Source: Eledone cirrhosa (taxonomy: Eukaryota). Taken from it: 64,000 nucleotides of DNA. The number at the start of each line of letters is the position of its first letter. The first letter of the stretch is position 1. Both the position numbers and the translations under genes were made by a program. Shown piece by piece: positions 30,001-43,300 of the stretch. The notes beneath the pieces were generated by a model. It had not been told where the DNA came from and did no database searches. It worked only from the letters and a program-made list of their open reading frames with translations. The stretch spans positions 4,588,001 to 4,652,000 of the forward strand of contig OZ024740.1 of NCBI GenBank assembly GCA_964016885.1, read 5' to 3'.

Positions 30001-30883
30001 GCTGGTTGTGTGGGTTAGAAGGTTTCACTAGAGGGAACAGAGCTGGTTTTGTCGGTTAGAAGATTTCACTAGAGGGACAGTGGTGGTCGTGTGGGTTAGA
30101 AGGTTTCACTAGAGGGAACAGAGCTGGTTGTGTGGGTTAGAAGGTTTCACTAGAGGGAACAGAGCTGGTTGTGTGGGTTAGAAGGTTTCACTAGAGGGAG
30201 CAGTGCTGGTTGTGTGGGTTAGAAGGTTTTACTAGAGGGAACAGAGCTGGTTGTGTGGGTTAGAAGGTTTCACTAGAGGGAACAGAGCTGGTTGTGTGGG
30301 TTAGAAGGTTTAACTAGAGGGAGCAGTGCTGGTTGTGTGGGTTAGAAGGTTTCACTAGAGGGAACAGAGCTGGTTGTGTGGGTTAGAAGGTTTCACTAGA
30401 GGGAGCAGTGCTGGTTGTGTGGGTTAGAAGATTTCACTAGAGGGAGCAGTGCTGGTTGTGTGGGTTAGAAGGTTTCACTAGAGGGAACAGAGCTGGTTGT
30501 GTGGGTTAGAATGTTTCACTAGAGGGAACAGAGCTGGTTGTGTGGGTTAGAAGGTTTCACTAGAGGGAGCAGTGCTGGTTGTGTGGGTTAGAAAGTTTCA
30601 CTAGAGGGAACAAAGCTGGTTGTGTGGGTAGAAGGTTTCACTAGAGGGAGCAGTGCTGGTTGTGTGGGTTAGAAGGTTTCACTAGAGGGAACAGAGCTGG
30701 TTGTGTCGGTTAGAAGATTTCACTAGAGGGAGCAGTGCTGGTTGTGTGGGTTAGAAGGTTTCACTAGAGGGAACAGAGCTGGTTGTGTGGGTTAGAAGGT
30801 TTCACTAGAGGGAGCAGACCTGCTTGTGTTGGTTAGAAGGTTTCACTAGAGGGAGCAGATCTGGTTGTGTGGGTTAGAATGTT
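1..30883. repeat. 41-bp tandem satellite array (~750 copies), consensus GTTAGAAGGTTTCACTAGAGGGAACAGAGCTGGTTGTGTGG, with higher-order structure; begins before the window
   Basis: Unit read directly (1-41, next unit starts at 42). It is continuous to the last partial unit ...GGGTTAGAATGTT at ~30883. No ORFs are reported in this region. Confidence 0.99.
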
Positions 30884-30904
30884 ATGGTATTATATTAGTG
30901 TCAA

Positions 30905-31091
30905 AGGGCAGTGAATTAGCAGTATTGGTAGAGGGTTGGACGCCATGCTATGATGCATAGAGTTACGCCCTTTCCATTCTGAGTTCAAATCCTGCTGAGA
31001 TTAACTTTGCGTTTCATCCTTATGGGGTCGATAAAATAAAGTACCAGTAATGTACTGGGTAATTGCTGGCCTTGTGCCAAAAGTAAAAATA
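30905..31091 (+). mobile_element. tRNA-derived SINE (Octopus-type, Nin/Deu-like central domain), diverged, with 16-bp TSD
   Basis: Perfect direct repeat ATTATATTAGTGTCAA at 30889-30904 and 31092-31107. Box-B-like GAGTTCAAATCC is followed by TTTCATCCTTATGGGGTCGATAAAATAAAGTACCAG, resembling the conserved SINE central domain, then an A-rich tail. Family assignment is from recalled consensus, not from a search. Confidence 0.85.
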
Positions 31092-31399
31092 ATTATATTA
31101 GTGTCAACCATGTCACCAATAACGTCACCAAAAACAACCATGATACTATATTAACTACTACCAAATATATTTTTCTTAAGCAATTGGTAAACATGGAAGA
31201 TAGCCATAAATAATGGAATAAAAAGATGAATCTAAGATAGATGATATGCTTCTAGTAAATCAAATAATATAAAAAGTAAGATACTACTATGTCTGAAGTA
31301 CAGAGTGTTTCGACCTGTGTGTCATACAAGTAATTACTTATGGTTGATGACTGAAAACATGGAACAGAAGCTCAGAACATATCAAAGAAATATGAAAAG

Positions 31400-32175
31400 A
31401 TTCATTGGTGAAAAAGGTAGTGCTTGAATTTGAACAGTGAATGCAACCAGCCCTGACAGTAAGGTATTCTGGAAATATGTACACTCAAAGCAGGGACCTC
31501 ACGCTCCAGTTGGTCCTCGTCACAATCTCCACACAAGCCAGATTACTGACGATCCCAAGGAATGCGCAGAACTCATTAGTGAATGCTATGCTGGCATTTT
31601 CACTGTTGAAGACCAGAGTGTACCATCTCCAACACCTCTGACATTGGATTCTATTACAACTATGGAATCTACACCTGCAATGCTGCGACGTCACCTTAAA
31701 AATAAACACAACCATGCCTCTCCTGGTCTTGATGTTGTTACGTACCTGCTTCTCAAACGTGGTGGGTACTTCCTTCTACACCAGCTTTCAATTTTGTCGG
31801 AACAACAGTGCTACTCCAGAACAGTGAAAAACTGCCAGTGTCATTCCTCTGTTCAAAAAGGGTGACCGCACATCACCTGTGAACTGTCGTCCAGTCAGTC
31901 TTATTAGCTGCATTGCCAAACTGATGGAATCCTGTGTCAGAGAAACACTCTAGAACTTCTGGAATTCTCACAGTCTTATCCGGCCCTAGCAATTTGGATT
32001 TATCCCTAACTCAAGATGCTGTGATCAACTTATCAAGTTTGTTGAAGACATCACCCGGATCACTGATGGCAGCTCATGGGTGGATGTTGTTTACCTTGAC
32101 TTTGCTAAAGCTTTCAATTCTGTGCCACACAAAAGACTTATGGCAAAACTCTCTGCAATGGGTGTGAAAGATGAT
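31400..32175 (+). pseudogene. Decayed CR1/Jockey-group non-LTR retrotransposon ORF2 fragment (pre-RT region and RT N-terminal motifs)
   Basis: Motifs across frames: KVFWKYVHSK, SPGLDVV, IPLFKKGDR, CRPVSLISCIAKLME, QFGF, VDVVYLDFAKAFNSVPHKRL. Interrupted by frameshifts and stops, and truncated before YADD. Confidence 0.85.
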
Positions 32176-32715
32176 CTTTCCTGAGACATTCTAACCATAT
32201 GCTCATAGTATTGGAGCTGTAATCTCTTAATTCGGAGAAGTAGCAGCTCTACCTGGAATGACTCTCTAACCTCTGAGCTATGCACTCTATCAAGTAACGT
32301 CACTCCAAAGACCCTTCGGAGGAATCCCATTTTGGCTGCTTGAATTCATGATTGTATTCTTTTGGTCATTACCTAAGATTCATGACCATAGGTAAGGGCT
32401 GGCATGAATACCCAATTGAAGATAGCGAGTTTGGCTTTATGCCTACCTCCCTTCTGATTACTGAATATTGAAGCTGGCACATTACTGCAGCAGCTCCTGC
32501 AATTCTTGCACTGAATTCAGCCTCCTGCCTTCCATCACTTGTGAACACAGCTCTGAGATACTTGAACTTCTTTATCTGCTTCAATGGAACTCCATTCACA
32601 TGTAGAGTGCTCTGCACTGGCTTCCTTGAGAGGACAAGTGTCTCAGTTTTCACAGCACTGATTTTCCTTCCAGCCATGCAGCACTTGGCATCAAATCTAT
32701 CAAGTGCAAATCAAA
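32172..32715 (-). pseudogene. Decayed RTE-clade (Expander/Rex3-like) LINE fragment, C-terminal RT/thumb region
   Basis: ORFs 32369-32677(-) KISAVKTETLVL...FKYLRAVFTSDG and 32091-32330(-) MGFLRRVFGVTLLDRVHSSEVR...QLQYYEHMVRM are typical post-RT RTE motifs, with a frameshift between them. Confidence 0.85.
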
Positions 32716-33305
32716 GATCACCTATTGGATATCAAATATCTAACTCTTTCATTAATTACCTAAAAATTAGAACATTACTAATAATTTCTTTGTTTTCTAG
32801 TTCTTAGTAAGTACTAGCAAAATAAAAACAAAGAAAAAGAAGTAATTTATTGCAAGAAGAGAAGAGAATATTGAAAAACCATTGATAAAGAATGGTAGCT
32901 GAATGTTGTATCATTGATGTTGTATCAGTGATGAGTAGTTTAGAGAAAGTTGGACATCATATTACTGAATTATGCAAATATTAACAACTAGCTGAACCAG
33001 TTAATAACAACAACAACAAAAAGAAAATCTATTTCTACATGAAATATTATTAAGCAAGGAATAATCATCGTTAGAATTAATGGTGTCATTACATCTAAGA
33101 AATGATTGTCGGCAGAGGAAGTTTTACCGAAAAAGTTGGCTGCGGAGAATAATTTTCACTTAAGTTGATTCTCATGTTTGTTTAAAAAAAAAAACAAAAG
33201 TAAAAAAACTCACCAGTGAATATAGAAAAATCAATATCTTTAAATTCAGTGAAATAAATCAAATATTAATGGATTTTCTTGTCCTCCACCTCCTACAATT
33301 GCCTC

Positions 33306-33421
33306 TAATAATAATAATAATGGTGATGATGTTGGTGATGATGATGTTGATGATGATCATCAAGATCATGATGATGGTTGTGGTGGTGGTTTTGATAATG
33401 ATGATGATGATGTTGATGATT
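33306..33421. repeat. (AAT)n/(GAT)n/(GGT)n compound trinucleotide microsatellite
   Basis: Direct reading; it explains the poly-Met ORF 33269-33460. Confidence 0.9.
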
Positions 33422-33812
33422 CCTTTATTAACCACAAGAAGTTTTGCAAAAGCACATTAAGGACTGTACAATAGGATGCAGCACTGTGGTTTTATGAAAA
33501 CATGTAAAAAATGGAAATAATAAGAACAAAATCAAAAATGGGTAACCATAAAAATACAATTCCACAGTATGGGGGAGACTTCCAAGATGTAGACATGGAA
33601 AGCCCCTCCCCCACAAAATGTCATGGTAATCTTGACCAACAAGACAGGAAGTGCCCTCTTCTCCCAGTTGTATTCTTCAGATCCAGAGTTATCTCTTGTT
33701 TAGAAAGTTGAACTGCTTTGTTATGATCACTTTAAAAGTTATCAAATAGGACACTCCCATTTCAGAAATACTAATAAAAACCATTGCTATCTTGCAAGTA
33801 AAAATATTTGTT

Positions 33813-33912
33813 AATCCTGTATACCTTCATAATTATGTACATATCTTCATAATCCTGTATGTACCTTTATAATCCTGTATGTACCTTTATAATCCTGTAT
33901 GTACCTTTATAA
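33813..33912. repeat. 20-bp minisatellite AATCCTGTATGTACCTTTAT (3 perfect plus ~2 degenerate copies)
   Basis: Perfect copies at 33851, 33871 and 33891. Confidence 0.9.
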
Positions 33913-33959
33913 ATTGTTCAAATAATGTTTAGATTGACTTTGTTGGGGACTTAATTGAC

Positions 33960-34143
33960 CTGACTAGTGCTGGTATCAATAATACATCATGTACAGTCTA
34001 GAAAGGGGTTGACATGAGGAAGGGCAACCAGATGTGGAAACCCTGCCCTAAATGGAAGGTATGGACAAAATGTAGCTTTACAACCCAAGTCAGGGACCAT
34101 GATGTCCTGTCAATTGGAAAACGGATATAAACACGATGAGGAT
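33960..34143 (+). mobile_element. Decayed 3' half of an Octopus-type SINE with an RTE-like tail
   Basis: Reads TAGTGCTGGT...GAGGAAGGGCAACCAGATGTGGAAACC...GGAAAACGGATATAAACACGATGAGGAT. The tail resembles the 3' end of the RTE in this window (GGGAAAAGCGGACGTATGATGAT, ~38657-38694). Family identity is from memory. Confidence 0.6.
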
Positions 34144-34516
34144 TTTATATATATAAATTAATTTTATTTATCTATCTATATATTTATTTATCCTTATAAA
34201 TTTCCTAAAGCCTCATTAATAAAATTTAAGAAAATTAGACTAATAAATGCCATTAATAAAATAAGAGAAACCATAAAAATGTATTCAATATTTTGTTTTT
34301 GAGAAGATTTTAAGAATGTAAAAAAAAAATAAGGAAAAAAAAACAATTCTATAACGAGAAAGACATTCTTGAAGATTTTCAACACACATACACACACAAA
34401 CTACATACACACATATGTATATATGTAGTTTGTGGGTGTCTGTGTATATATATATATTTATACATACATGATGATGACATACATATATAAATATATATCT
34501 ATCTATATATATATAT

Positions 34517-34929
34517 GTAGGAGGTGAGTTTTATTGTAGTACAATAAAGCAATGCAAATATCGGATAAGTAGAGACAATATATATTTTTCTCAGTTGTAA
34601 AGGCTATATCTCTCTCTCTATCACCCATCTCTCCTCCTCTCTCCTCCTTCCTTCTTATACTCCTCCCCAACCATTCTCTACTCTCATCTCCTCTTTCTCA
34701 CCCTTTCCAACCCCTCCAACCCCCTCACTTTTTCCCAATCTCATACATCAATCTTAAATTATTTTTCATATGTTGATTTAAAACTTCACTATTCACAAGT
34801 GTTTTTTAACCTTCATATCATGTATCCCTATTTTATCTGATGAAAACTCAGATATCATCTCATGATGATATTTGTTTTTGAAATGCGCATAATAAAATAC
34901 TTGGAACTCTTTTAACCATCTTTTGATCT

Positions 34930-34933
<4 letters not shown>
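34517..34933 (+). mobile_element. Element A (long copy): (TA)n-flanked non-coding hammerhead-bearing repeat, Penelope-like pLTR or retrozyme-like
   Basis: Starts GTAGGAGGTGAGTT after (TA)n and ends at (TA)n. An inverted homologous copy lies at 39368-39540. Contains a hammerhead. Confidence 0.65.
34829..34899 (+). ncRNA. Minimal type I hammerhead ribozyme (family A)
   Basis: Stem I TATTTTAT(34829-36)/ATAAAATA(34892-99); core CTGATGA 34837-43; stem II CAGATATCATC-TCAT-GATGATATTTG; GAAA 34880-83; palindromic stem III ATGCGCAT; predicted cleavage after A34891. Confidence 0.85.

Positions 34934-34934
<1 letters not shown>

Positions 34935-34999
<65 letters not shown>
34935..34999. repeat. (TA)n microsatellite
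   Basis: Direct reading. Confidence 0.95.
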
Positions 35000-35005
<6 letters not shown>

Positions 35006-35136
35006 GTGAGGTTTTTTTTACAAAATGAAAAATAACAGACGTGTCCTACACGAGTGAAAGTATAAAGAAAAAGAGATGAAATCGAAAATGCAACTGGAGT
35101 CTTATTTTTAAAAAAAATATATATATTTATTTGGTT

Positions 35137-35174
35137 CCTTTACCGGTTTCGCAGTTCTTCTGCTTTTCAAAAGG
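35137..35174 (-). ncRNA. Minimal hammerhead ribozyme (family B, U3:A8 core variant), left-arm copy
   Basis: Reverse complement of 36578-36615. Confidence 0.72.
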
Positions 35175-35732
35175 TGAGTTGAGATGGAGGGTCTGTGGTT
35201 TTTCTCACATCTGGTTGGTCTCTGAATGTTACTTGTTTTATATGGAAAAAGTGGCTCGAAATTCCAGGTTTTTCGAGAAGTAATTTGATTGGTTTGTCAA
35301 TAATTATAATAAATTTTGCGTCAGTTCGCGTTACAATAGTTCTTCAAATAAGAGAGGGGGGGGGGGGGGGTTGTCACAGGTTGTTTTTTCATATATGAGT
35401 GTTTGAATTTCTTTTTACTTGAAAAAAGGAGGCTCACGAAGGCTTTTTTTTGGTTGGTTATAAATGAAATTTGGCTGTCACATGAACAAGTTTTCATTAC
35501 ATTTTTGCGCCCTTATTTGGAAAACTATTCTGTAGTCTTTATAGTGAATGTTATGACAATGGAGAGATAGTGGTCAAGAGAAAAGGGATTGGGAGAAATG
35601 TTCTGGTTCAGTGAATATGGCCAGCTCGCCGGGGTGTCAGAGTTCAGATTTTCTATTGCACTGGCAATACAACAGCAAACACGAAAAACTAAGGAAAATA
35701 TGTTCATTCAAAAATATTCCTACTAAAGGAAT

Positions 35733-36062
35733 CACTTTCCTACACACACACATACACACACACACAATATATATATATATATATTCTCTTCATCTTAACA
35801 TGCTAACCATACTCCCACACACATAACACCCATACACACATAACAACCCCCACACCTACAACTCTCTCCCCATTTCTACTAATAGAACCACTTTCCTACA
35901 CACATATATATATATACACACACACAAAATATATATTCTCTCCATCTTAACATACTCGCACACACACACATAACACCCATATACACACACACACAACTCC
36001 CTCCCCCATCTCTACTAATAGAATCATCTTCCAATACACACATACACACACAAAAGCACACA
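35733..36062. repeat. CA-rich imperfect tandem duplication (~140-155-bp unit, ~2.3 copies) in the inverted-repeat spacer
   Basis: CACTTTCCTACACAC...CATCTTAACAT...CTACTAATAGAA recurs at ~35733 and ~35889, and partially at ~36025. Confidence 0.75.
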
Positions 36063-36577
36063 AATAAACATACATATCATCAGTCTCAATAGAAAATCTG
36101 AACTCTGACACCCCCCCCCCCCCCCGCGAGCTGGCCATATTCACTGAACCAGAACATTTCTCCCAATCCCTTTTCTCTTGACCACTATCTCTCCATTGTC
36201 ATAACATTCACTATAAAGACTACAGAATAGTTTTCCAAATAAGGGCGCAAAAATGTAATGAAAACTTGTTCATGTGACAGCCAAATTTCATTTATAACCA
36301 ACCAAATAAAAGCCTTCGTGAGCCTCCTTTTTTCAAGTAAAAAGAAATTCAAACACTCATATATGAAAAAACAACCTGTGACAACCCCCCCCCGCCCTTC
36401 TTATTTGAAGAACTATTGTAACGCGAACTGACGCAAAATTTATTATAATTATTGACAAACCAATCAAATTACTTCTCGAAAAACCTGGAATTTCGAGCCA
36501 CTTTTTCCATATAAAACAAGTAACATTCAGAGACCAACCAGATGTGAGAAAAACCACAGACCCTCCATCTCAACTCA

Positions 36578-36615
36578 CCTTTTGAAAAGCAGAAGAACTG
36601 CGAAACCGGTAAAGG
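36578..36615 (+). ncRNA. Minimal hammerhead ribozyme (family B, U3:A8 core variant), right-arm copy
   Basis: CCTT-TTGAAAA-GCAG-AAGAA-CTGC-GAAA-CCGG-TA-AAGG: stem I CCTT/AAGG, stem II GCAG/CTGC, palindromic stem III ACCGGT, predicted cleavage after A36611. AATAAA follows at ~36620. Confidence 0.75.
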
Positions 36616-36684
36616 AACCAAATAAATATATATATTTTTTTTTAAAATAAGACTTCAGTTGCATTTTCGATTTCATCTCTTTTT

Positions 36685-36728
<44 letters not shown>

Positions 36729-36731
<3 letters not shown>

Positions 36732-36950
36732 GAGGTTATATTTAATTTGTTGGGATTCAACAAGCTTAACAATTCAGGAAGCTCCAACCGTTAAGGTTGT
36801 CTTTTTTTTCCGGGTATGTCAATATTTATTTATAAAACAATCTGTATTTTATCTGATGAAAGCGCACCATAATTTGCCTTGGTTGCCCTTGAAATATGTA
36901 TAATAAAATAAATATGGTTTTATAAATATAGTTTCCATTTATTAATATAT
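36729..36950 (+). mobile_element. Element C: short (TA)n-flanked hammerhead-bearing repeat (Penelope-like or retrozyme remnant)
   Basis: A ~220-bp segment between TA-rich tracts, with a hammerhead near its 3' end. Confidence 0.5.
36845..36910 (+). ncRNA. Minimal type I hammerhead ribozyme (family C, slightly decayed)
   Basis: Stem I TATTTTAT/ATAAAATA; CTGATGA 36853-59; stem II AAGCGCACCA...TGGTTGCCCTT (one mismatch, one bulge); GAAA 36891-94; stem III ATATGTAT; predicted cleavage after A36902. Confidence 0.78.
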
Positions 36951-36977
36951 TGTGTATATATATATATTTATACATAC

Positions 36978-38694
36978 ATGGTGGATCCGACAGAGGGACC
37001 AGCTATTGAGATTGACGAATATAGGGTCCAAGAGGCAATTAGGGAAATGAAAAATGGTAAGGCTGCCGGACCATCGGGAATAGTTGCTGAGATGCTGAAG
37101 GCATCAGGGGACGTAGGCACTAAACTGGTTGCACGCATCATCAATCAGACTATATATGGTGGTGTCATACCCAAAGACTGGTGCAGCAGTATTCTCATAA
37201 ATTGCTACAAAGGTAAAGGGATGCTCTGGAGAGGAGCAATTATAGGGGTATAAAACTGATAGATCACGTTATGAAAGTGGCAGAAAGGATATTAGCACAA
37301 CTAATTAGAGAAAGGGTCAAACTAGATGAGATGCAGTTTGGTTTTGTGCCTAGGAAGAGTACAACAGATGCCCTCTTCTTGGTGAAACAACTACAAGAGA
37401 GGTTCTTAGAGAAGAATAAGTCACTATACTTAGCCTTTGTTGACCTAGAGAAGGCCTTTAATAGGGTACCCCGATCTGTCATCTGGTGGTCCTTAAGGAA
37501 GCTAGGTGTTGAGGAATGGCTCGTGAGGACAGTGCAAACTTTGTACAGAGGTACTCTCAGTAAAGTCAGGGTAGGAATGGAGTTTAGTGAGGAATTCCAG
37601 ATACAAGCAGGAGTACATCAAGGTTCGGTCCTCAGCCCGCTCTTGTTCATTATAGTCCTCCAAGCCACAACAGAGGAGTTTAAGACTGGCTCTCCATGGG
37701 AACTTCTCTACGCTGATGATCTGGTTCTTATAGCAGAATCAGTAGAGGAGCTAGAGAATAAATTCTGGCTATGGAAACAGCAGTTGGAAGCCTGAGAGTG
37801 AACCTAGCTAAGACAAAAGTGTTGATGAGTAGAAAAGAGGACAAAACTCTGATTCCGTCAGGGAAATGGCCATGTTCGATATGCAGAAAAGGAACTGGCA
37901 TAAATTCTATAAAATGCACACAATGCAGATGCTGGGTACACAAGAGATGTAGTGGGATAGCAGGCAAACTAACAGGTAGGGAGAAATATGTATGCAGTAG
38001 ATGTACAGGGAAATTAGACAGTAGAAGTCGCATTGATAGACATATTTTTCAAATGCAGGAGGGCGCTATAGAAGTGGTGGATAGCTTCCAGTTCCTAGGA
38101 GATCAGATTAGCATGGGAGGAGGGTGTTCCGAGGCCATAGTATCTAGAATAAGGACAGGTTGGAAGAAGTTTAGGGAGCTGCTTCCTCTGCTGATGAAGA
38201 AGGGTTTATCCCTGCTTACGAAAGGCCAGTTGTATGATGCCTGTGTGAGGAGCGCGATGCTGCATGGTAGTGAGACATGGGCAGCAACTGCAGAGGATAT
38301 GCGACGGCTGGAGAGAAATGAGGCAAGTATGCTCTGTTGGATGTGCAGTGTCAATGTGCGTAAACGACCCAGCATGAATGTGTTGAGAGAGAAACTGTGT
38401 CTGAGAGGGATAGAATGTAGTGTACGGGAGAGGAGACTGAGGTGGTATGGACATGTAATGCGCATGGAGGATGACCGATCGGTGAAGAAGTGCTAGGAAA
38501 TGCCAGTTGAAGGAAGACGTGGTAGAGGTAGACCACGAAAAACATGGGCGGAGGTGGTGAGAACAGACCTCAGATCGCTGAAGCTCACGGAGAAGGTGGA
38601 TCGTGACGATTCGAGAGATGCTGTGCTGAATAAGACCCGTCCCACCCTTGCAAGCAGGGAAAAGCGGACGTATGATGATGATGATGATGATGAT
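36978..38694 (+). mobile_element. 5'-truncated RTE-clade LINE: RT plus PHD-like finger, (TGA)n tail, inactivated by two frameshifts and a stop
   Basis: Motifs GKAAGPSGI, YKGKG, QFGF, FVDLEKAF, GVHQGSVLSPLLF, YADD (37709-37720), LRWYGHVMR and RGRGRPRKTW. Frameshifts at ~37220 and ~37785, stop at 38494, tail TGATGATGA... at 38672-38694. Confidence 0.95.
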
Positions 38695-38714
38695 ATATAT
38701 AAATATATATATAA

Positions 38715-38767
<53 letters not shown>

Positions 38768-38983
38768 AATATAAATAAAGTGAGAATCTAATTTCGGTGG
38801 GTAGCAAAAGTGAAACGAAACGCAAAATCAGAGTTCTGCTGACAAGGGCTCCATAGTTAAAAAAGCAGAGCTAAACAATATGTGAAGAGGCCATAGGAAA
38901 CTGAAAAAGTGGTCAACAAAGCATTAACCACCTAAGCCAAAAAACAAGTCAAGCTAAACAGGTCACACAAAATAAATGATAAA

Positions 38984-39029
<46 letters not shown>

Positions 39030-39287
39030 TATATATATATCTATATATATATATATATAGTAGAATAATCGAGTATCGAAAAATCGGCGCACGAGTTCAC
39101 GATAAACAAAATTCGAAAATGAGCGGCAGAGGGCTCAATAATTCAGATAAATCAGAGCTATAACTATCGTTAAAATACCGTCACACATAGAACAAGTCTA
39201 TAATCAACCGTACGACCGAAAAATTGCGATCTGGAAGATTCGGAACACTCAGAAAAAATATCAATAAATCAATAAATCAAATGAATG

Positions 39288-39367
<80 letters not shown>

Positions 39368-39373
<6 letters not shown>

Positions 39374-39540
39374 AACAAAAGATGGTTAAAAGAGTTCCAT
39401 GTATTTTATTATGCGCATTTCAAAAACAAATATCATCATGCAATAATATTTGTGTTTTCATCAGATAAAACAGGAGGACATGATATGAAGGCTAAAAAAC
39501 ACTTGTGGATAGTGCAGTTTTAAATCAACTCACCTCCTAC
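39368..39540 (-). mobile_element. Element A (short, internally deleted copy), inverted relative to 34517-34933
   Basis: The reverse complement matches 34517-34530 joined to 34772-34933. (TA)n flanks both sides. Confidence 0.75.
39402..39472 (-). ncRNA. Minimal type I hammerhead ribozyme (family A, second copy)
   Basis: Minus strand reads TGTTTTAT-CTGATGA-AAACACAAATATTATT-GCAT-GATGATATTTGTTTTT-GAAA-TGCGCA-TA-ATAAAATA. The core is identical to the 34829 copy. Confidence 0.85.
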
Positions 39541-39687
39541 ATATATATATATATATATATATATATAAACACATATATATATATATATATACACACATAT
39601 ATATACATATATACATGATGATGACATATAAATATATATATAAATGTCATCATCACCATTGTCATTATTAGCATTTAACAATACTGT

Positions 39688-40280
39688 CATCACTCTCGCA
39701 CTTCCATCACCCTCCCCTTTACCTCACCCTTCCACCACTCCTCCCATCACCTTCACCCTTCCATCACTCTCCCCCTCCATGACTCTCACCCTTCCACCAC
39801 TCACCCCCTCCATCACTTCACCCTTCCATCACTCTCCTCCCTCCATCACCTCTACCACTCTCCCCCTCCATCCCCTTCACCCTTACATCACTCTCCTCCT
39901 GCATCCCCTTCAGCCCCCCCCCCCCCTCCACCCCCTTCCACCACTCTCCTCCTGCATCCCCTTCACCCTTCCATCACTCTTCACCCTTCCATCACTCTCA
40001 CCCTTCCATCACTCTGCCCCTCCATCACCTTCACCCCTCCATCACTCCCTCCCCTCCATCCCCTTCACCCTTCCATCACTCTGCCCCTCCATCACCTTCA
40101 CCCCTCCATCACTCCCTCCCCTCCATCCCCATCACCCCTCCATCACCTTCACCCCTCCATCACCTTCACCCCTCCATCACCTTCACCCCTCCATCACCTT
40201 CACCCCTCCATCACCTTCACCCCTCCATCACTCTCCCCCCTCCACCACTCTCCCCCCTACCATTGCCTCTCTCTCCCATT
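39688..40280. repeat. C-rich degenerate ~18-bp minisatellite (CCATCACCTTCACCCCT-like)
   Basis: Recurrent CCATCAC/TTCACCC modules and almost no G on the + strand. Confidence 0.85.
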
Positions 40281-40329
40281 AATCCTATCCCCTGACACAC
40301 TAAGACACAAAGGTTACCTTAATGTTAAT

Positions 40330-43300
40330 CCTACTCTGTAAAGCTGTGGCATTGATGTCATGATATAATACACCCAGTCCACTCTGTAAAGTGGTGGCAT
40401 TGATGTCATGATATAATACACCCAGTCCACTCTGTAAAGTGGTGGCATGGATGACATGATAAAATACACCCAGTCCACTCTGTAAAGCTGTGGCATTGAT
40501 GACATGATATAATACACCCAGTCCACTCTGTAAAGTGGTGGCATTGATGACATGATAAAATACACCCAGTCCACTCTGTAAAGCTGTGGCATTGATGACA
40601 TGATATAATACACCCAGTCCACTCTGTAAAGTGGTGGCATTGATGACATGATAAAATACACCCAGTCCACTCTGTAAAGTGGTGGCATTGATGACATGAT
40701 AAAATACACCCAGTCCACTCTGTAAAGTGGTGGCATTGATGACATGATAAAATACACCCAGTCCACTCTGTAAAGTGGTGGCATTGATGTCATGATATAA
40801 TACACCCAGTCCACTCTGTAAAGTGGTGGCATTGATGTCATGATATAATACACCCAGTCCACTCTGTAAAGTGGTGGCATTGATGACATGATAAAATACA
40901 CCCAGTCCACTCTGTAAAGTGGTGGCATTGATGACATGATAAAATACACCCAGTCCACTCTGTAAAGTGGTGGCATTGATGTCATGATATAATACACCCA
41001 GTCCACTCTGTAAAGTGGTGGCATTGATGTCATGATAAAATACACCCAGTCCACTCTGTAAAGTGGTGGCATTGATGACATGATAAAATACACCCAGTCC
41101 ACTCTGTAAAGTGGTGGCATTGATGACATGATAAAATACACCCAGTCCACTCTGTAAAGTGGTGGCATTGATGTCATGATATAATACACCCAGTCCACTC
41201 TGTAAAGTGGTGGCATTGATGACATGATATAATACACCCAGTCCACTCTGTAAAGTGGTGGCATTGATGTCATGATATAATACACCCAGTCCACTCTGTA
41301 AAGTGGTGGCATTGATGTCATGATATAATACACCCAGTCCACTCTGTAAAGCTGTGGCATTGATGTCATGATAAAATACACCCAGTCCACTCTGTAAAGT
41401 GGTGGCATTGATGGCATGATAAAATACACCCAGTCCACTCTGTAAAGTGGTGGCATTGATGACATGATATAATACACCCAGTCCACTCTGTAAAGTGGTG
41501 GCATTGATGACATGATAAAATACACCCAGTCCACTCTGTAAAGTGGTGGCATTGATGTCATGATATAATACACCCAGTCCACTCTGTAAAGTGGTGGCAT
41601 TGATGTCATGATATAATACACCCAGTCCACTCTGTAAAGCTGTGGCATTGATGTCATGATAAAATACACCCAGTCCACTCTGTAAAGTGGTGGCATTGAT
41701 GGCATGATAAAATACACCCAGTCCACTCTGTAAAGTGGTGGCATTGATGACATGATATAATACACCCAGTCCACTCTGTAAAGTGGTGGCATTGATGACA
41801 TGATAAAATACACCCAGTCCACTCTGTAAAGTGGTGGCATTGATGACATGATAAAATACACCCAGTCCACTCTGTAAAGTGGTGGCATTGATGGCATGAT
41901 ATAATACACCCAGTCCACTCTGTAAAGTGGTGGCATTGATGGCATGATATAATACACCCAGTCCACTCTGTAAAGTGGTGGCATTGATGACATGATAAAA
42001 TACACCCAGTCCACTCTGTAAAGTGGTGGCATTGATGACATGATATAATACACCCAGTCCACTCTGTAAAGTGGTGGCATTGATGTCATGATATAATACA
42101 CCCAGTCCACTCTGTAAAGCTGTGGCATTGATGTCATGATAAAATACACCCAGTCCACTCTGTAAAGTGGTGGCATTGATGGCATGATATAATACACCCA
42201 GTCCACTCTGTAAAGTGGTGGCATTGATGACATGATAAAATACACCCAGTCCACTCTGTAAAGTGGTGGCATTGATGACATGATAAAATACACCCAGTCC
42301 ACTCTGTAAAGTGGTGGCATTGATGGCATGATATAATACACCCAGTCCACTCTGTAAAGTGGTGGCATTGATGGCATGATATAATACACCCAGTCCACTC
42401 TGTAAAGTGGTGGCATTGATGACATGATAAAATACACCCAGTCCACTCTGTAAAGTGGTGGCATTGATGACATGATAAAATACACCCAGTCCACTCTGTA
42501 AAGTGGTGGCATTGATGTCATGATAAAATACACCCAGTCCACTCTGTAAAGTGGTGGCATTGATGACATGATAAAATACACCCAGTCCACTCTGTAAAGT
42601 GGTGGCATTGATGTCATGATAAAATACACCCAGTCCACTCTGTAAAGTGGTGGCATTGATGACATGATAAAATACACCCAGTCCACTCTGTAAAGTGGTG
42701 GCATTGATGACATGATAAAATACACCCAGTCCACTCTGTAAAGTGGTGGCATTGATGACATGATAAAATACACCCAGTCCACTCTGTAAAGTGGTGGCAT
42801 TGATGACATGATAAAATACACCCAGTCCACTCTGTAAAGTGGTGGCATTGATGACATGATAAAATACACCCAGTCCACTCTGTAAAGTGGTGGCATTGAT
42901 GGCATGATAAAATACACCCAGTCCACTCTGTAAAGTGGTGGCATTGATGACATGATATAATACACCCAGTCCACTCTATAAAGTGGTGGCATTGATGACA
43001 TGATAAAATACACCCAGTCCACTCTGTAAAGTGGTGGCATTGATGTCATGATAAAATACACCCAGTCCACTCTGTAAAGTGGTGGCATTGATGACATGAT
43101 AAAATACACCCAGTCCACTCTGTAAAGTGGTGGCATTGATGACATGATAAAATACACCCAGTCCACTCTGTAAAGTGGTGGCATTGATGGCATGATAAAA
43201 TACACCCAGTCCACTCTGTAAAGTGGTGGCATTGATGACATGATATAATACACCCAGTCCACTCTGTAAAGTGGTGGCATTGATGACATGATAAAATACA

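Follow-up and report, generated by a model that had tools for sequence, protein, structure and literature searches.

Penelope-like elements (PLEs), the sister group of telomerase, are known to carry hammerhead ribozymes in their pseudo-long terminal repeats (pseudo-LTRs), and insertion of Hydra- and Neptune-type elements into (TA)n, inverted ends, tails and the U3-A8 form of the hammerhead core have all been described before. PLEs have their promoter inside the pseudo-LTR (PMC2377424), and the tail is "often" present on one end only (PMC8557442, PMC3846280). How the head-to-head inverted ends and the one-sided tail originate is debated; antisense self-priming was proposed in PMC3846280, and an in vitro system was called for in PMC8557442. 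In vitro, a PLE starts reverse transcription at two internal sites that define the tail, both DNA strands are cut and extended, the main substrate is uncleaved RNA and the ribozyme is protein-assisted (PMC11167929). Here, we analyzed 64,000 nucleotides of the Eledone cirrhosa genome (GCA_964016885.1, contig OZ024740.1, positions 4,588,001 to 4,652,000; hereafter the window), in which five hammerhead motifs of three families, A, B and C, lie within 5 kb. Judged from sequence, these motifs are almost certainly the ends (pseudo-LTRs) of protein-coding PLEs, and they likely mark four truncated insertions nested in TA repeats, probably made by the elements' own enzyme copying uncleaved RNA from two fixed starts at the same time. 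What is new is the quantitative pattern of the ends and the scale.

Five hammerhead motifs belong to four insertions

A 41-bp satellite (window 1-30883, 753 copies within the window) and a 48-bp satellite (40333-64000, 493 copies) are separated by 9.4 kb of mixed sequence. An earlier note, made from the letters of the window alone, had described these two giant satellites, which are real; no link was found between them and the hammerhead motifs. A descriptor scan of 30883-40333 returned exactly five motifs (Table 1), compared with a mean of 0.02 and a maximum of 1 in 200 block-wise dinucleotide shuffles. These are the five motifs of the earlier note, at the positions it gave, and the cleavage products that it predicted likewise begin at 34892, 36612 and 36903. 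Two motifs belong to family A (A1 and A2), two to B and one to C, which has its stem I in common with A. Because both B motifs, 35170(-) and 36582(+), are arms of one inverted insertion (98-99% inverted repeat), the insertions number four, and not five. We considered whether A1 had given rise to the short A2 by internal deletion and rejected this, because A2 comes from another subfamily and is a twin-arm insertion in its own right.

The motifs are the ends of protein-coding elements

Families A, B and C are repeats of the 3.0-Gb host genome (40 candidates scored for each), and all three have the traits of PLEs, namely partial tandems as pseudo-LTRs, an inverted truncated copy and an optional tail. 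RT (reverse transcriptase) and endonuclease frames lie upstream of B in 9/12 long loci. The B element of locus L091 has an uninterrupted frame of 775 amino acids with RT, DKG, GxKF, a CGRSNCGTC linker and a GIY-YIG domain (PF01541), and counterparts of the longer B arm in the window are contiguous with the RT and GIY-YIG open reading frame (ORF) in L091, L099 and other loci. The CX2-5CxxC linker before GIY-YIG, DKG and CCHH, all present in B, are Neptune-clade features, common to Nematis, and by these motifs we assign B to the Neptune/Nematis-type PLEs with RT and GIY-YIG. It resembles them in RT, DKG, GxKF, linker, C-terminal GIY-YIG and (TA)n bias, and differs in an overlapping upstream ORF1, a U3-A8 hammerhead and a 65-nt tail. 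Octopus bimaculoides supplies the closest named protein relative of the B ORF (74% over 55%). The overlap of ORF1, in the -1 frame, with ORF2 contains a slippery-looking T-TTT-TTA heptamer (L091, 3061-6179; L101, from 2746), which suggests a -1 ribosomal frameshift.

Family A follows a Hydra-type ORF in 18/20 loci, with a frame of 821 amino acids in L173 and all 150 scored ORF matches at 93% or more, and C follows a second such ORF in 14/16 loci (743 amino acids, open); the two ORFs share 49% identity. Read by eye from L173/L175 and from L151/L322 (the linker of L322 is partly deleted), their motifs are DKT, an RW motif in which RWK takes the forms RWT, RWI or RWR, a CxCx5C linker and CxxC plus CxH around the endonuclease E/N, with no CCHH, and a Pfam search of these ORFs gave no significant family. 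According to these motifs, A and C are assigned as two Hydra-clade PLE families; the motif criteria, and Hydra-1_Obim of O. bimaculoides, a family distinct from A and C, as the reference, were taken from PMC8557442 and its supplement. Insertion into (TA)n and the hammerhead were confirmed for A and C copies. A and C are like the Hydra clade and Hydra-1_Obim in ORF motifs, (TA)n targeting and a 3' hammerhead, and the order of RT motifs is that of Hydra-1_Obim as printed in the supplement. They differ from Hydra-1_Obim and the other hammerheads listed there by a 3-bp stem, a conserved C.C or C.U mismatch and a long stem II. Their units are also longer, about 3.3-3.9 kb (in A, the spacing from pseudo-LTR to pseudo-LTR) compared to a Hydra-clade tendency under 3 kb, with tails of 91-96 nt. 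The proposal that the motifs are PLE pseudo-LTR hammerheads is thus supported by ORF linkage in every family, and the families are probably undescribed, as had been suspected. We found no published description of A, B, C or PLE twin priming, and Repbase, Dfam or the repeat library of PMC13282606 may hold the families.

Nearly all classifiable head-to-head pairs have one tailed arm

For end mapping we used 118 motifs in the order in which they lie along contig C1, beginning at its start. The 3' ends of every family fall at two discrete sites, each adjoining (TA)n, in agreement with the (TA)n targeting suggested by the earlier note: the pseudo-LTR end and, beyond it by 65 nt (B), 94-96 nt (A) or 91-96 nt (C), the tail end. 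In tandem copies of all three families the tail is the spacer between the pseudo-LTR and the ORF start, and the A tail runs on into the 5' region of the ORF. The B tail stands whole directly before ORF1 in 25/30 loci, and its end is present in 29/30. Loose contig ends agree with both B 3' sites in three runs of unspecified type, where depth gives no copy number and starts are invisible. Reversed tail ends resemble splice donors; they lie on the antisense strand of the element, and we saw no exon partner that they have in common.

Among 32 diverging pairs less than 6 kb apart there were 25 tail/no-tail pairs, one tail/tail pair, no pair without tails and six pairs with an unclassified or tandem arm, that is, exactly one tailed arm in 25/26 classifiable head-to-head pairs (binomial 4e-7). 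The arms of the single tail/tail pair lie 3.5 kb apart and probably represent two events. Arm divergence was 0.6% within pairs versus 3.5% across pairs in A (15 pairs; 0/20,000 permutations) and 2.4% versus 4.2% in B (10 pairs; p=0.001). The arms reached equally far toward the 5' end in 15 of the 25 pairs, the tail-less arm was longer in 7 and the tailed arm in 3. The inverted arms of A1, A2 and C in the window are made of tail only, and further tail-only cases occur elsewhere.

Fold-back self-priming might also give rise to an inverted arm, for instance if the template were antisense, as has been suggested for Adineta PLEs; the tail ends would then be set by endonuclease resolution at TA sites in the intermediate and not by annealing of a primer. 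Such self-priming is put forward in PMC3846280 and PMC8557442. Palindromic junctions (one of them centered on the A 5' boundary), the equal reach of arms in 15/25 pairs and the arm identity within pairs all fit this explanation, and the enzyme's TA preference would likewise put ends at TA runs. Fold-back accounts for the symmetric pairs, but not for tail-only inverted arms, which have no sequence common to the direct arm, or for the finding that the longer arm of a pair can be either one; both are hard to derive by copying one arm from the other, and we regard this origin as unlikely. Twin priming with run-off at the transcript start is the probable route, as far as the ends themselves can tell. 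PAc, the Poseidon element of Anolis, is alike in its two tail-defining RT starts, the extension of both strands and the uncleaved RNA substrate (PMC11167929).

Alternating TA runs of 6, 2, 4, 7, 5 and 6 nt follow the six start sites; such runs are present at 5/6 sites, with a local chance of 0.4-3% each and of 22% at the A distal site. Priming by TA annealing may explain them, and is held with less confidence than twin priming and run-off.

Many short copies share a 5' boundary, and most keep an intact ribozyme

The 5' ends of 21/49 A copies lie at -65..-75 and those of 27/57 B copies at -37..-43, so that in both families roughly 45% stop at a single site upstream of the ribozyme; 5/12 C copies end at -81..-83, where the mapping is unreliable. 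A second A cluster at -297..-320 (9/49) was attributed to divergence between subfamily and references and not taken for a true end. No stable hairpin was found just upstream of the boundaries, which leaves unsupported the idea that RT stops at a hairpin and so fixes the 5' end. A genome-wide count of B 5' ends adjoining (TA)n, limited to the reverse strand so that none was counted twice, gave 431 for the common boundary, 26 for the cleavage site and 9 for a control site. Because copies keep the ribozyme intact across the cleavage site (79/82 distinct 3' halves intact upstream), the template appears to have been mostly uncleaved RNA.

Short copies could instead be separate non-autonomous elements, either solo pseudo-LTRs resembling short interspersed nuclear elements or retrozymes, with their own transcription and mobilized in trans, possibly via circular RNA; the earlier note had leaned this way. 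Short copies that end at the fixed 5' site abound and retain the presumed promoter region, and a PLE pseudo-LTR origin of animal retrozymes is put forward in a 2026 preprint (10.64898/2026.07.22.740005). However, they have the same sequence variants as the ORF-linked ends, the motifs being contiguous with RT-endonuclease ORFs in other copies, and they are not delimited by the cleavage site. Further, no same-strand neighbor lies within 3.3 kb among the 118 motifs, and no short same-strand tandem array was found. Metazoan non-LTR retrozymes as described in PMC7229834 are alike in their type I hammerhead and short non-coding copies; here there are no 150-450-nt tandem arrays, the ends are not at the cleavage site and the linkage to ORFs is direct. 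We consider a separate, trans-mobilized set highly improbable, and that part of the note's interpretation is not supported.

The hammerhead fold is conserved and is predicted to cleave weakly

All five motifs have the type I order, core boxes with a Watson-Crick 3-8 pair, GAAA, a U-H site and three stems. Minimum free energy folds recovered stems I and II (z -2.3, -0.9, -2.0, -0.7 and -0.7). The type I reading of the earlier note held in 5/5, with corrections: the B core is UUGAAAA (U3-A8) and not CUGANGA, and in A and C, whose stem II spans 31-36 nt, A10.1-U11.1 replaces G10.1-C11.1. The U3-A8 pair is present in 99/100 B motifs among the matches listed, with both positions left free by the pattern. 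The 10.1-11.1 pair is G-C in B; among 151 A/C-like motifs it is A-U in 110, G-U in 21 and G-C in 11. An Rfam scan drew a blank, with no hammerhead in the window at E<=10. Rfam hammerhead models are built on canonical forms.

Covariation was assessed in 151 distinct A/C-like motifs from 337 loci, which were chosen by core boxes and stem III context without demanding pairing; B motifs lie outside this set. Each of eight stem positions was paired in 141-147/151 motifs, with A-U/G-C/U-A swaps, and stems I and II were 88-89% paired in register compared with 48-59% when slid (64 end-types). Stem II position 4 is a C.C or C.U mismatch in 141/151. The cleavage triplet is AUA or AUC in 151/151 (the pattern demanded U-H). 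From this pairing, the fold is evidently under selection. Further hammerhead families were seen in random loci (L244, L251, L257, L261 and others), many with the same position-4 mismatch.

Stem III, which had been read as palindromic, is 2 bp in the monomer, and intermolecular pairing is predicted at -12.5, -4.2 and -10.3 kcal/mol. Strong cleavage is disfavored because the A/C stem II is closed by A-U, the monomer stem III is 2 bp and in vitro cleavage by similar motifs is poor (PMC4209133). On its own the ribozyme probably has little activity, and cutting would require dimerization or assistance from protein. The minimal PLE hammerheads described in PMC4209133 are alike in a tiny palindromic stem III, in occurring mostly singly or as opposite-strand pairs and in the U3-A8 variant, a swap reported there for Schistosoma Cercyon; A and C differ from them by A10.1-U11.1.

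The motifs might be structural relics that never cleave, the fold serving as a protein-binding or promoter element, which would be compatible with our preferred explanation of how the copies were made. This fits the absence of G10.1-C11.1 from A and C, the poor in vitro cleavage of minimal PLE hammerheads (PMC4209133) and the mostly uncleaved templates. Against it, both partners of the core 3-8 pair are changed in B, the stems covary and the cleavage triplet is conserved. We hold relics to be possible but doubtful.

Nested insertions are ordinary in this genome

One exact pattern for the A/C-type motif matched 22,616 sites genome-wide and one for B matched 12,166, with 0 matches to the reversed patterns; together, these counts give at least 34,782 motifs. 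By comparison, about 9,000 in Xenopus and about 4,000 in Latimeria were called remarkable in PMC4209133. In 39 arbitrary 10-kb stretches there were 14 motifs (control 0), three of them in one stretch and four in another, which suggests a load of about 108,000 hammerheads per genome (Poisson 59,000-180,000, a range that clustering widens). Five motifs in 5 kb reflect ordinary nesting, because the motifs are common genome-wide and the (TA)n flanks of each insertion are the next target. The cluster is ordinary for its host genome.

Other features of the window

A 30-nt exact repeat (Table 1) is likely the target-site duplication of A1, into which B, C and a long interspersed nuclear element (LINE) would have inserted afterward. 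The LINE fragment, presumably RTE-like, has an RT and PHD-like fingers and sits inside this likely duplication. Decayed LINE-like fragments lie on both strands at 31434-32184 (+) and 32091-32710 (-), with a weak RVT_1 match at 31990-32181. The segment 39060-39290 (-) is a piece of a non-coding, (TA)n-targeted repeat of about 612 nt that also occurs in L345/L346, L350 and L351. It forms PLE-like partial tandems, and its 3' end is followed by a TA run; we saw no hammerhead in it, and an Rfam scan gave no match. Of 1,974 first-look candidates 40 were scored, at 98-100%. By its structure, it looks like a truly non-autonomous PLE passenger. A TA-flanked repeat at 38779-38986 resembles this element and has 77-89% matches in four other loci.

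Table 1. Insertion arms and neighboring features, in window coordinates
Feature	Coordinates	Strand	Details
Family A insertion 1, inverted partial tail arm	34517..34572	-	End at start site 2 joined to (TA)n; 97-98% to the tail in full-length A copies
Family A insertion 1, 5'-truncated 3'-untranslated region (3'UTR)/pseudo-LTR arm, Hydra-clade PLE by motifs, no tail	34572..34929	+	Hammerhead core 34837-34891
Family B insertion, tail-bearing arm	35000..35658	-	Tail 35000-35064; hammerhead core 35170-35141, U3-A8
Family B insertion, longer arm without tail	35656..36687	+	3'UTR with ~150-nt internal repeats, and pseudo-LTR; hammerhead core 36582-36611
Family C insertion, inverted partial tail arm	36729..36769	-	
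Family C insertion, pseudo-LTR arm, second Hydra-clade PLE by motifs, no tail	36769..36952	+	Hammerhead core 36853-36902
Family A insertion 2, other subfamily, pseudo-LTR arm	39372..39529	-	Starts near common 5' boundary; hammerhead core 39464-39410; 97% to L177
Family A insertion 2, inverted arm, last 12-14 nt of tail	39527..39540	+	From sequence
30-nt stretch	34441..34470	+	Exact repeat at 36951-36980
Broken LINE fragment, presumably RTE-like, unrelated, (GAT)n end	36981..38690	+	RVT_1 E=6.7e-24; ORFs

Discussion

Using the terms twin priming and strong-stop, we propose the following route for the four insertions and their relatives. The GIY-YIG domain would nick both strands of (TA)n; one nick would prime at the proximal site, i.e. 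the pseudo-LTR end, and the other 65-96 nt downstream, i.e. the tail end, with base pairing to short TA stretches of the RNA assisting the priming. Both complementary DNAs would extend toward the RNA's 5' end and be joined head to head by microhomology. Short copies would be run-off products that reach the presumed transcript start in the 5' pseudo-LTR, and most products would be of this kind, given that only about 150-270 nt separate it from the start sites. The ribozyme would be under structural selection yet unneeded for making these copies.

Several points weigh against this account. The RT of PAc starts inside the ORF, at sites non-homologous to the cut DNA (PMC11167929), whereas the starts of A, B and C lie in the non-coding spacer before the ORF and their TA runs match the target; the TA match at the A distal site spans just 2 nt, or up to 4 in certain junctions, and the six start sites are not independent, A and C being related. 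The end-mapping set covers the start of contig C1 and intact motifs, and includes the five of the window. Gene conversion or a shared source locus could equally give the similarity of paired arms, so a single RNA molecule is unproven. Two or three of the seven pairs with a longer tail-less arm are limited by reference mismatch, and the C 5' extents are unreliable, 5/8 C and 3/9 A reference copies being unusable. The cleavage site has about 3-4 times as many (TA)n-joined B ends as the control, and some cleaved RNA may have been used; this excess is only a hint, because the cleavage site has TA microhomology. Finally, the clade names derive from motifs rather than an RT tree.

A broader version is that PLE insertion is obligate twin priming, in which a dimeric RT-endonuclease would pair both nicked (TA)n strands with two short TA template patches of a single sense RNA, in a telomerase-like manner, and copying that runs off at the transcript start would leave some 10^5 hammerhead-bearing strong-stop copies. 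We offer it tentatively, at slightly less than even confidence. If it is true, every inverted insertion has one tailed and one tail-less arm.

For the debate on inverted ends and one-sided tails, these young, abundant families supply countable rules, i.e. one tail per pair, a fixed 5' stop and TA patches at the starts, and the intact reading frames of A, B and C can be used for tests of the mechanism. To the Hydra-clade hammerheads, A and C contribute forms in which a C.Y mismatch is conserved. The load suggested for this one animal genome is roughly 59,000-180,000 hammerheads, a class of which every member in the window was missed by Rfam.

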